Origin: a virus
Length of the DNA: 64,000 nucleotides
Virus record (IMG/VR): IMGVR_UViG_3300042691_037350
Location: 1 to 64,000 of that record
Direction: 5' to 3' (one strand)
Of the stretch, positions 55,376-58,300 are shown piece by piece (position 1 is the first letter of the stretch; each line of letters starts with the position of its first letter). The translations under genes were made by a program, and so were the position numbers. The notes under the pieces were generated by a model. It worked only from the letters and a program-made list of their open reading frames with translations. It was not told the origin of the DNA and did no database searches.

Positions 55376-58300
55376 ATGTCTAGAGGATTTAATTTAACGG
55401 CTGAAATCAATCTCCGTGGACCCTCCAATATTCGCACCGTAGTTGCCGATATTCGCCGTCAATTAGGTACTGTAACTGCCGATGTTAATGTTAGAGTTAA
55501 TCCCACGGCCATAAGAAATATTTCAGCTCTGAATCAGGCATTAGGTAGACTTAATACTACTTTAGCAGATACTAATCGATTAGGACTACAAGCAACTAAT
55601 ACATTAAATTCTTTAGCTAATGCTGGTCGTCAGGCCACAAATAGTATTGCTAATTTGCCAAGAAATATTCAAAACGCATCAACTGCTGTAAATAGATTAA
55701 GTAATACAACTAACCAAGCTGCTAGAAACTTACAAGTAGCTAGAACCGAGTTTGAAGAATTTGGAAGACAGTCTGCTTTGGCTATTAGAAGATTTGCTGC
55801 GTTCGCCACAGTAACAGGAGCTATTTTTAAAGTTACCAACGCGATCAGCTCTGCTTCGGCCGAATTTATAGCATTTAATAAAGAACTAGTAAGAGTGGCT
55901 CAGGTTACCGACACGTCCGTATCTAATCTAGGGGGTTTAGTTAAAGAAATTACATCTTTATCTACCAGATTTGGCGTAACGTCTAAAGAATTAATTCAGG
56001 TATCTAGTACATTAGCTCAGGCCGGTTTGAGTGCTAGAGACACAGAAAAAGCTCTTAAGGCTTTGGCTCTTAGTGCTATGGCACCTTCTTTTGATAGTTT
56101 GAATGATACGGTAGAAGGCAGTATTGCTTTAATGAGACAGTTTAATATTGGTGCAAAAGATTTGGAAAAAGCATTAGGCTCTGTTAACGCTGTTTCTGCT
56201 AAATTCGCCGTAGAAGCGAGCGATATTATTACTGCTATACAGCGAACCGGTGGTGTGTTTGCTGCTGCTAGTAGAGGTGTAAGCGAAGGCACAGATGCTC
56301 TTAATCAATTTATAGCTGTATTTACCAGTGTGCGTGCTACTACTCGTGAAAGCGCAGAAACTATTGCTACCGGTTTAAGAACTATTTTTACTCGCGTTCA
56401 AAGAGCAAGCACTATTGATGCATTAAAAGAATACGGGGTAGTTCTTACAGATTTAGAAGGTAAATTCGTTGGACCATACGAAGCTGTTAGAAAATTAGCA
56501 GAAGGTTTGAATCAATTAGATCCAAGAGATTTAAGATTCTCAAGAATCGTTGAAGAGTTGGGTGGCTTTAGACAAATTGGTAAGGTTATTCCGCTTATTC
56601 AACAGTTTGCTACGGCACAACAAGCACTCATAGTAGCTCAAAAAGGACAAGGGTCTTTAGCTAACGATGCTGCCACAGCACAACAAGCGCTCGCGGTAAA
56701 AATTTCTAAAGTTAGAGAAGAATTTATAGCATTAATTAGAAGTGTTGGACAAAGCGATAGTTTTCAAAACTTTGTTAAATTAAGTTTAGATTTAGCTAGC
56801 GCTCTCATTAAGGTGGCAGATTCTGCGAAGGGTGTTTTACCAGCATTAACAGCTATTGCGGCTATTAGAGGTGCTAGTTTCTTAACTCAATTTGCTACGG
56901 GTTTTGCTGGTGGGCTTAGACGTAGAAATAGCGGTGGTCCTATTATGGGTTTTGCTAAGGGTGGTTTAGTACCTGGCTCTGGCAATAGTGATACCGTACC
57001 GGCGATGTTAACTCCTGGCGAGTTTGTTATTCGTAAAAAAGCTGTCGAAAGTTTAGGAGTATCTCGTTTATCTAATATTAATAAATATGCTAATGGGGGT
57101 CCGGCCAAATCTCCAACTAAAACATTAGAAAAATATTATACAGATTCATCTAAAATTAATTTAGGATTAGCTAATAGTAAATCTTTATCTAAAGAAGACA
57201 GAAAATCTTTAGCATCAGATGTTAAGAATCTACGCCAGCTTAGAGCGCAGGCACCAACACAGGTTTATAGTGCTATCAGCAGTGTGGCTTTTGATAGTAT
57301 GGCAAGACAAACTGGTTTTAATAAAAAAGCAGCAGAAGGAGCAGGTCCTCTCAAAGAAGATAGGGTTTTTGCGGCAGAAACTCAAAAAATTATCGGTAAA
57401 GCATTTAAACTACCAGGCTTTTTATCTACTAGCAAAGAATATTCTGTAGCAAAAATGTTTCTAGATAATGCTCCGAGAACAGATAATTTTGGAGCTATGC
57501 TAAACATTAAAACAAAACAGGGCGCCAAAGGCATAGATACTGTTAGTTCTTTGGGTGGAAAACAAATAGATGTATCTAAGACAGAAATAGATCCTAGATC
57601 TGGTAAACCAACCACATATAAAATGAATCAACCAGATGCTGAAAAAGAAGTTATATTACAGCCACGATCACGTTTTAAGATTGATAAGGCTTCATTTTCT
57701 GGGTTTTTAGGGGGTAATAAAAATTTATGGATGGATGTGCAACAGTTTAATGAGGGTGGTTTAATTGAAGATATTCGTGGAGGATTAAGACAGGTCGGGG
57801 CTGCTGTATTAGAACCAAACAGCAAAAGACCAAAATCAGACGTTTTATTTAGTGTTACAGAAAATAAAATCAAAAATGCTTTGGGTCTAGATAAACAAGA
57901 GTCTATAAAAAATTTGGGTTTTAGTAATAGACTCGATATGACGGGCATAGTATCTGGATTAACTACCCCAACATCAGATACTTTTAATGCCGCTCTCGAT
58001 AATGGTATTGTACAAGGCATCAACTCGGCTGCCGCTCAAATATCAGAAAAGCTTCAAGTTAGCATAGGTTCTATAGATGACTCTACTAAAAATGCATTTT
58101 TATCTGGAATTAATACTGGCACTAGAGGAAATTTATTCGAAGATATCCTAACATTAATGAGCGGTAAATTCGAAAGAATTTCTGGTAGAAATTTCGATTT
58201 TCCAAATGGTATGCCATCAATTAAAGAAGGTGATTTCGCTGGTTTACCAAAGAAGTGGATTGACGCTAAAGCATCTTTTGGTAGAGCAACTAGAAGCGGC

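Follow-up and report, generated by a model that had tools for sequence, protein, structure and literature searches.

An ADP-ribosyltransferase-fold cassette without its canonical arginine inside a giant phage tape measure protein

Why should a phage tail tape measure protein (TMP) carry a domain with the fold of an NAD+-dependent toxin, and what could that domain do when the arginine expected in its active site is a serine? Both questions are raised by the first 64 kb (64,000 nucleotides, hereafter the window) of the IMG/VR virus record IMGVR_UViG_3300042691_037350, a record of 122,474 bp that is estimated to be 82% complete, with 34.4% G+C. The TMP gene lies on the plus strand, as do the features within it; it runs from 55376 to the end of the window at 64000 and continues past it to 65686, as a single open frame of 3436 amino acids (aa) in total. 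TMP residues 576-790 (57101-57745) form a cassette with the ADP-ribosyltransferase (ART) fold of the R-S-E clade, set between short Gly-Gly linkers: K-Y-A-N-G-G (57083-57100) directly before the cassette and F-N-E-G-G (57746-57760) closing it. The original prediction, made from the sequence alone, had placed an ART domain within the TMP at exactly these coordinates, and all the peptides it quoted are found in the translation. With roughly even confidence, we explain the cassette as a tail-carried effector that is ejected with the TMP, probably an arginine-specific mono-ART of the C3/VIP2/iota type, whose activity in this particular copy may be weakened or changed.

Sequence and fold of the ART domain

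As the original prediction had proposed, we compared the 215 excised residues with the Pfam profile PF03496 (ADPrib_exo_Tox), and obtained a match of 34 bits (E 2.3e-8) against a curated cut-off of 23.4 bits, covering profile positions 22-190 of 196. A six-frame search of the genome with the same profile returned 34.6 bits (E 5.9e-10), and 12 of the 16 aligned family members match it at E <= 0.01. The match of the ART domain to this family is far beyond chance. When the same Pfam scan was run on the 2875-aa part of the TMP that lies in the window, the ART family was not reported, so that the domain would go unnoticed when the complete protein is annotated in the usual way. Since the ART is invisible to a whole-protein scan, such cassettes are probably under-annotated, and scanning giant phage proteins domain by domain may bring further ones to light.

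The original prediction had also named a structure prediction lacking the ART fold as the outcome that would speak against it. We modeled the domain with AlphaFold2, using as input an alignment (A1) of the window domain and 15 relatives (16 sequences), and this model (pLDDT 85, pTM 0.78) was used instead of the one built from the single sequence, for which the pLDDT was 38. The model has the split beta-sheet and the N-terminal helices that define the ART fold. A Foldseek search of the PDB with the model gave 151 matches at E <= 1e-3, and all of the matches listed are R-S-E ARTs; they include Plx2a, C3 enzymes, Certhrax, iota Ia, CDTa, VIP2 and C2-I, with a Foldseek probability of 1.00 against C3, Ia and VIP2. 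In VIA-align, ARTs made up all of the best 50 matches, headed by iota toxin Ia (4h03_A, with NAD+ and actin; Z 14.7, rmsd 3.4 A over 165 residues). Among the predicted viral structures of BFVD, the best matches were VIP2-like ARTs fused to MuF, portal or minor capsid proteins, together with T4-type Alt/ModA/ModB, and the tape measure name was absent from the best 50.

Searches by sequence gave a sparser picture. No match to the domain was obtained from PDB sequences by phmmer (E <= 1) or with the family profile (E <= 10), from GenBank phages by megablast and tblastn, or from IMG/VR when it was searched with the single ART protein sequence; plasmids yielded matches at E >= 0.9 only, and comparisons with one canonical ART by BLASTP and hhalign were not significant. 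Matches from NCBIfam and PADLOC were dismissed as noise.

With the C3, VIP2, iota-Ia and CDTa enzymes, the window domain shares the fold (Z 13-14.7), N-terminal helices with Y..I-N, and the S-T-S and E-x-E motifs, which agree both in their order and in the secondary-structure elements that hold them. It differs from them in having a Ser for the Arg on strand beta1, in a 29-aa insertion and in overall sequence (~15-21% identity), and whereas the C3/VIP2/iota-type enzymes are secreted toxins, the window ART forms an inner part of a tail protein of a phage. The label "VIP2/Alt-like" given by the original prediction can therefore be kept in part: the domain is VIP2/C3/iota-like, at the level of the R-S-E clade, but a specific likeness to T4 Alt was not recovered. 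Aligned with T4 Alt by hhalign, the family profile gave a probability of 0.33% over 37 columns around STS only, and we found no specific relationship to the Alt/ModA/ModB family.

The tape measure protein as carrier

The carrier was recognized as a tail tape measure protein by its profile matches and by the placement of its gene. A PhageMin_Tail core (PF10145, Pfam E 1e-22) spans TMP aa 191-384 (55946-56527), and aa 49-512 match PHROG tape measure families (phrog_28, E 2.1e-23; also phrog_4211). Directly upstream of the gene lie two small overlapping open reading frames (ORFs) of 100 aa and 292 aa, and downstream a run of very large ORFs; this arrangement around 55376-65686 is the usual layout at a tape measure gene.

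We then asked in what proteins the domain is found. We searched 1.84 billion representatives exhaustively with HMMER and obtained 15 full relatives (41-57% identity) and one truncated relative, P0019, which was left out of A1; another match of this search, P0020 (a 610-aa repeat protein matching at E 7.9e-5 over 7 short stretches), was dropped as unrelated. A search of longer proteins (to 2000 aa) added a fragment, P0023. All 15 full-length relatives sit in proteins of 1917-5762 aa, whose N-termini, read directly, are the same TMP core as in the window protein, and at 8 viral loci the ART lies in open frames of 2377 to >5034 aa, on contigs of 49-230 kb. Neither single-protein nor alignment searches found a standalone relative of 112-384 aa, the family was not found in 185,579 species genomes (one genome each), and no standalone or prophage form of it turned up. 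The ART cassette was found only within giant TMP-like proteins.

As part of the TMP polypeptide, the ART would be assembled into the tail. At infection, it would leave the tail together with the TMP, before the DNA does, and would in this way reach the host cytoplasm. NAD+ is kept in the cell cytoplasm, and the ART can therefore act only if its TMP segment reaches that compartment. Once there, it would do from the tail what T4 Alt does from the head. The likeliest target would be an arginine of a host protein, since the ExE motif marks arginine-specific ARTs (PMC3102197) and T4 Alt provides an analogy (PMC9503650).

A different account places the activity at the other end of the phage cycle, in the producing cell: the ART would act late, on the TMP itself or on tail or host proteins, and its location in the TMP would tie its dose and timing to tail assembly. 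The TMP gene is indeed located amid late structural genes. However, if it did not matter that the cassette is tied to the virion, one would hardly expect to find it inside TMPs only, and never free, and the phage ARTs known to be linked to virions are interpreted as injected effectors (PMC9503650). We regard action in the producing cell as very improbable.

Virion-packaged ARTs are a recognized phage strategy, with T4 Alt and the MuF fusions of Alt/VIP2 and N4-type ARTs among its examples (PMC9503650, PMC5512222). Like the window domain, T4 Alt is an R-S-E ART that has ExE and belongs to the virion, and it is believed to act at the very onset of infection (PMC9503650). It is, however, a separate, head-packaged and injected protein with a canonical L-Y-R, which modifies RNA polymerase, whereas the carrier in the window is a tail TMP. 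The VIP2-like ARTs joined to MuF, portal or capsid-protease proteins in actinobacteriophages and others are, like the window ART, fused to a virion protein, but they sit C-terminally on head proteins, and the canonical Arg is present in 6 of the 6 phage-encoded ARTs compared (five from actinophages and C3 of phage c-st). Among 30 of the 86 GenBank phage records with VIP2-like ARTs, those listed, the annotations are ART, minor capsid, head morphogenesis and capsid protease, with no tape measure annotation. A third parallel is offered by polyvalent proteins, which combine several unrelated effector domains in one large virion-delivered polypeptide (PMC5512222) and in which ARTs are the commonest modifying domain (PMC5512222, Iyer et al. 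2017). Their ARTs belong to the H-Y-D clade, however, and passages of PMC5512222 and PMC9503650 state that Alt/VIP2 members are absent from genuine polyvalent proteins. Moreover, polyvalent proteins usually have a zincin-like metallopeptidase. The cargo stretch of the window holds two modules, the ART and an unassigned one, and Pfam scans of the TMP detected neither a metallopeptidase nor any other Pfam effector domain besides the ART.

The TMP of mycobacteriophage TM4 and Pb2 of T5 carry cell-wall hydrolase motifs. Such known TMP inserts act on the envelope or membrane, whereas an NAD+-dependent enzyme needs the cytoplasm. On the carrier side, the nearest concept is that of the TMP-like modular effectors (Sle1) of a Streptomyces contractile injection system, described in a 2026 paper; Sle1 and the enzymatic TMP inserts have in common with the window protein the use of the TMP as a modular platform for functional domains (PMC13277306). 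A full-text literature search for tape measure together with ART, VIP2 or NAD+ ADP-ribosylation found no report of an ART in a TMP among the papers listed and the passages covered, and "tape measure" has 0 occurrences in the main text of each of PMC9503650 and PMC5512222, whose supplementary architecture tables could list a TMP fusion. Virion-delivered phage ARTs are already known, but they have so far been tied to the head, as T4 Alt, as MuF, portal and protease fusions or within polyvalent proteins. If the proposed delivery is true, the tail lumen would be an added route for a cytoplasm-dependent enzyme; this would help to explain TMPs far longer than tail length requires, and would provide a model from nature for equipping phage tails with cargo.

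An active site without the beta1 arginine

To examine the active site, we compared the domain with eight canonical ARTs: two Bacillus thuringiensis (Bt) plasmid ARTs, C3 of phage c-st and five actinophage VIP2-like ARTs. All eight have h-h-x-R-[GR] on beta1, S-T-[SA] and [QE]-x-E. In the window, the aromatic-Arg (arom-R) position on strand beta1 is Tyr631-Ser632 (57266-57271), with Ser for Arg; V-Y-S is encoded at 57263-57271, and the Ser632 codon, AGT, at 57269-57271. By MAFFT, the Bt stretch V-V-Y-R-R-V-G-A-S-A-F pairs gap-free with Q-V-Y-S-A-I-S-S-V-A-F of the window. By hhalign of the 20-sequence family with the eight canonical ARTs (global probability 70%, E 5e-6; local E 3.2e-4), the canonical Arg falls on domain Ser57, which is TMP Ser632. 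The AlphaFold2 model agrees with both, in that strand beta1 comprises domain residues 54-59 (Q-V-Y-S-A-I) and is followed by a helix at 61-71. The R-to-S change that the original prediction had read at VYS is thus real, and its statement that the other two motifs are intact was equally accurate. The S-T-S motif (S684-T-S686, 57425-57433) is invariant in 20/20 sequences and is placed by the model within strand 108-111; in the E-K-E of the ARTT loop (E756-K-E758, 57641-57649; domain E181-K-E183), which leads into strand 183-186, both Glu are invariant. Of the features of the R-S-E family, the domain shows the profile match, the fold, S-T-S and ExE, but not the R.

Across the 19 relatives, the arom-R position is Ser in 17, Asn in 1 and Thr in 1, and never Arg. 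The arom-R motif of R-S-E ARTs, as defined in PMC6829252, is absent from the window and from all 19 relatives. Ser, Thr or Asn at this position is a trait of the whole family and no lesion of this copy, which refines the original prediction: the private change lies elsewhere, at Ser636 (AGT, 57281-57283). This position, four residues after the arom-R position and at the start of the next helix, is occupied by Arg in 19/19 relatives and by Ser in the window alone, where the codon is a single base from an Arg codon. The 19 relatives have 37 columns without any variation. The window agrees with them at 34, with S-T-S, both ExE Glu and domain R126 among these, and departs at three, namely V55 (others Leu), F130 (others Trp) and Ser636 (others Arg). 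Ser636 is the one radical private change in the window copy. The basic residues peculiar to the window copy are, in domain numbering, K18, R69, K174 and K182.

These patterns suggest that the family gave up the beta1 Arg and that the invariant Arg four residues later is a relocated phosphate-binding residue. In iota Ia, the corresponding stretch makes contact with NAD+. A second invariant Arg, after STS, is kept alongside the presumed relocated one. The candidate for this second NAD-phosphate Arg is Arg701 (57476-57478; domain R126, in F-L-D-N-A-P-R), which is invariant in 20/20 sequences; it stands, in A-P-R, 15 residues past STS, and hhalign puts it in a gap, at a position that varies among canonical ARTs. 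Arg701 may correspond to the less conserved aliph-R (PN-loop) Arg of R-S-E enzymes (PMC6829252). Because the window has Ser at the relocated position as well, its enzyme would probably bind NAD+ more weakly or work differently. We found no literature report of this active-site variant; the family-wide loss of arom-R, the absence of the substitute Arg from the window and the confinement of the cassette to giant TMPs are new here. For ART enzymology, this is a conserved family without the "R" of R-S-E, one member of which is also without the substitute Arg, and the relatives with that Arg and the window copy without it are a natural pair for asking what the arginine does.

As a separate observation, a 196-aa annotated ART on the Sphingobium plasmid pSES189 (L004:2695-3285) reads T-L-W-S-G-H-G before G-Y-I-S-T-S, with G-E-F-E intact; it may also have Ser after the aromatic residue, in a stretch where the local alignment is unreliable.

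A family-specific insertion of ~29 aa (57548-57634; pLDDT ~67) stands directly before the ARTT loop, as a gap in the canonical ARTs, and its core motif, I-N-P-R-T-G-K, is kept in relatives. The insertion adjoins the part of the enzyme that selects the target, and arom-R is missing across the family. Both features would suit an enzyme that consumes NAD+ but does not modify protein arginines, such as an NAD+ glycohydrolase or a small-molecule or nucleic-acid transferase, delivered early against NAD+-dependent defence or signalling of the host, and, as Tne5 shows, a protein with an ART fold and a non-canonical pocket can act solely as an NADase (PMC13285283). Nevertheless, we think such an activity improbable here, since E-x-E and S-T-S, both invariant in the family, characterize arginine-specific protein transferases (PMC3102197) and the closest folds, among the matches listed, are protein-modifying toxins.

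We also compared strains at the two Ser positions. Four runs, each from a different study, supplied contigs that all span 57266-57283, and two of these are strains that differ elsewhere. No other letter was seen at either codon (632 or 636), and the Ser codons are real. Within the ART domain, the strains differ by T6A, Q50P and A81V, and one of them also has E162A and a synonymous change; this variation is too sparse to gauge selection.

Several points weigh against a working, arginine-specific effector that is delivered through the tail. The beta1 Arg, one of the three defining residues of the NAD site, is missing, and here its substitute is missing too. XopAI, a Xanthomonas type III effector that likewise has the R-S-E fold, has kept ExE and has had the arom-R Arg replaced, appears unable to bind NAD+ (PMC6829252). 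The window copy sits on a long branch of the family tree (0.69 versus a median of 0.15); the tree is unrooted and allows either loss of Arg636 in this lineage or its gain in others. Strain differences in the domain are mostly non-synonymous, 3:0 in strain X9 and 4:1 in strain X12, counts too small to weigh. In addition, a folded domain of 24 kDa would have to fit the tail tube and TMP segments would have to reach the cytoplasm.

Some of the same evidence bears on whether the window copy is an enzyme at all. The ART fold might serve the TMP here for binding or for structure, for example as an arginine- or peptide-binding cleft like that of XopAI or as a spacer, without NAD+ chemistry. Ser stands at both the canonical and the relocated Arg position, the change at Ser636 is radical and unique among the 20 sequences, the terminal branch of this copy is long, and XopAI provides a precedent (PMC6829252). 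On the other hand, the 34 of 37 invariant columns that the copy keeps, with STS, ExE and R126 among them, would be unexpected in a decaying domain and argue against simple decay. XopAI also lost STS and aliph-R, three motifs in all, whereas the window domain keeps STS and the invariant second Arg and has lost only one defined motif (PMC6829252). The Ser codons, fixed across the four studies, fit a working variant as well as a tolerated loss. Sequence and fold are compatible with each of the three possibilities named by the original prediction, a variant enzyme, an NADase or a dead decoy. We consider a pseudo-enzyme unlikely, and favor a tail-carried ART effector whose activity may be weakened or altered.

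The cargo stretch and the genome around it

The ART lies in a putative cargo stretch that is marked out by a repeated motif. This 13-residue motif, DTVPA[ML]LTPGEFV, is present in five copies in the window TMP and also in most relatives. Its first copy, DTVPAMLTPGEFV (56990-57028), opens the cargo stretch, and its second, DTVPALLTPGEFV (58604-58642), closes it; the third lies at 61838-61876, and two more lie past the window, at TMP aa 3102 and 3257. In at least 8 of 16 proteins, the window protein included, the cassette is located between the first two copies of the DTVPAMLTPGEFV-type motif. The PHROG that spans the motif, 35029, is unannotated, and many unrelated contigs in four metagenomes match only the 40 bases of the motif, at 85% or more. 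The linkers recur as well: F-A-x-G-G is found at most 6 residues before the cassette in 10/15 relatives and directly after it in 9/15. The start of the cassette varies among proteins from residue 545 to residue 1748, and in the window the cassette sits in the N-terminal third of the TMP.

Divergence between strains climbs sharply from 57781 on. In strain X9, 5 differences were counted in 56800-57745 versus ~23 in 57746-58000, and this looks like a recombination or mosaic boundary at the end of the ART cassette.

The same cargo stretch contains a second module (57746-58600), with F-E, D-[FY]-P-x-G (D-F-P-x-G in the window) and D-A-K motifs. Of the 16 TMPs compared, 9 have these motifs, which may precede or follow the ART. 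The module gave no match in Pfam and none in the Atlas; by eye, its motif order resembles that of a PD-(D/E)xK nuclease.

A broader picture can be offered tentatively, as a possibility that we do not expect to hold in full. In large, mostly freshwater uncultured phages, the TMP would be a modular cargo train. Its folded effector cassettes, the ART and at least one more module, bounded by F-A-x-G-G and framed by DTVPAMLTPGEFV, would be exchanged among phages and sent through the tail before the DNA, which would bring in cytoplasmic enzymes by way of the tail instead of the head; the NAD+ site of the ART would have been rebuilt with an Arg off beta1, which would be dispensable here.

Most genes adjoining the TMP gene have no PHROG or Pfam family match, and a search for tRNAs found none. 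Downstream of the TMP gene lie several more ORFs of 1300-2650 aa without family matches, and a further giant ORF of 3363 aa occupies 32759-42850, with a PHROG tail-fibre match that is short and weak. An 862-aa protein encoded at 45692-48280 combines Mtd_N, the N-terminal domain of the major tropism determinant (E 2e-20), with a collagen repeat and a phage tail repeat; in Bordetella phage, diversity-generating retroelements act on Mtd.

Near-identical DNA was found in 20 public runs; these come from 14 studies and are for the most part of freshwater. The phage is widespread, and it is without a cultured relative in GenBank. The remaining runs with near-identical DNA are labelled as fungus, aquatic, plankton and food-production metagenomes.

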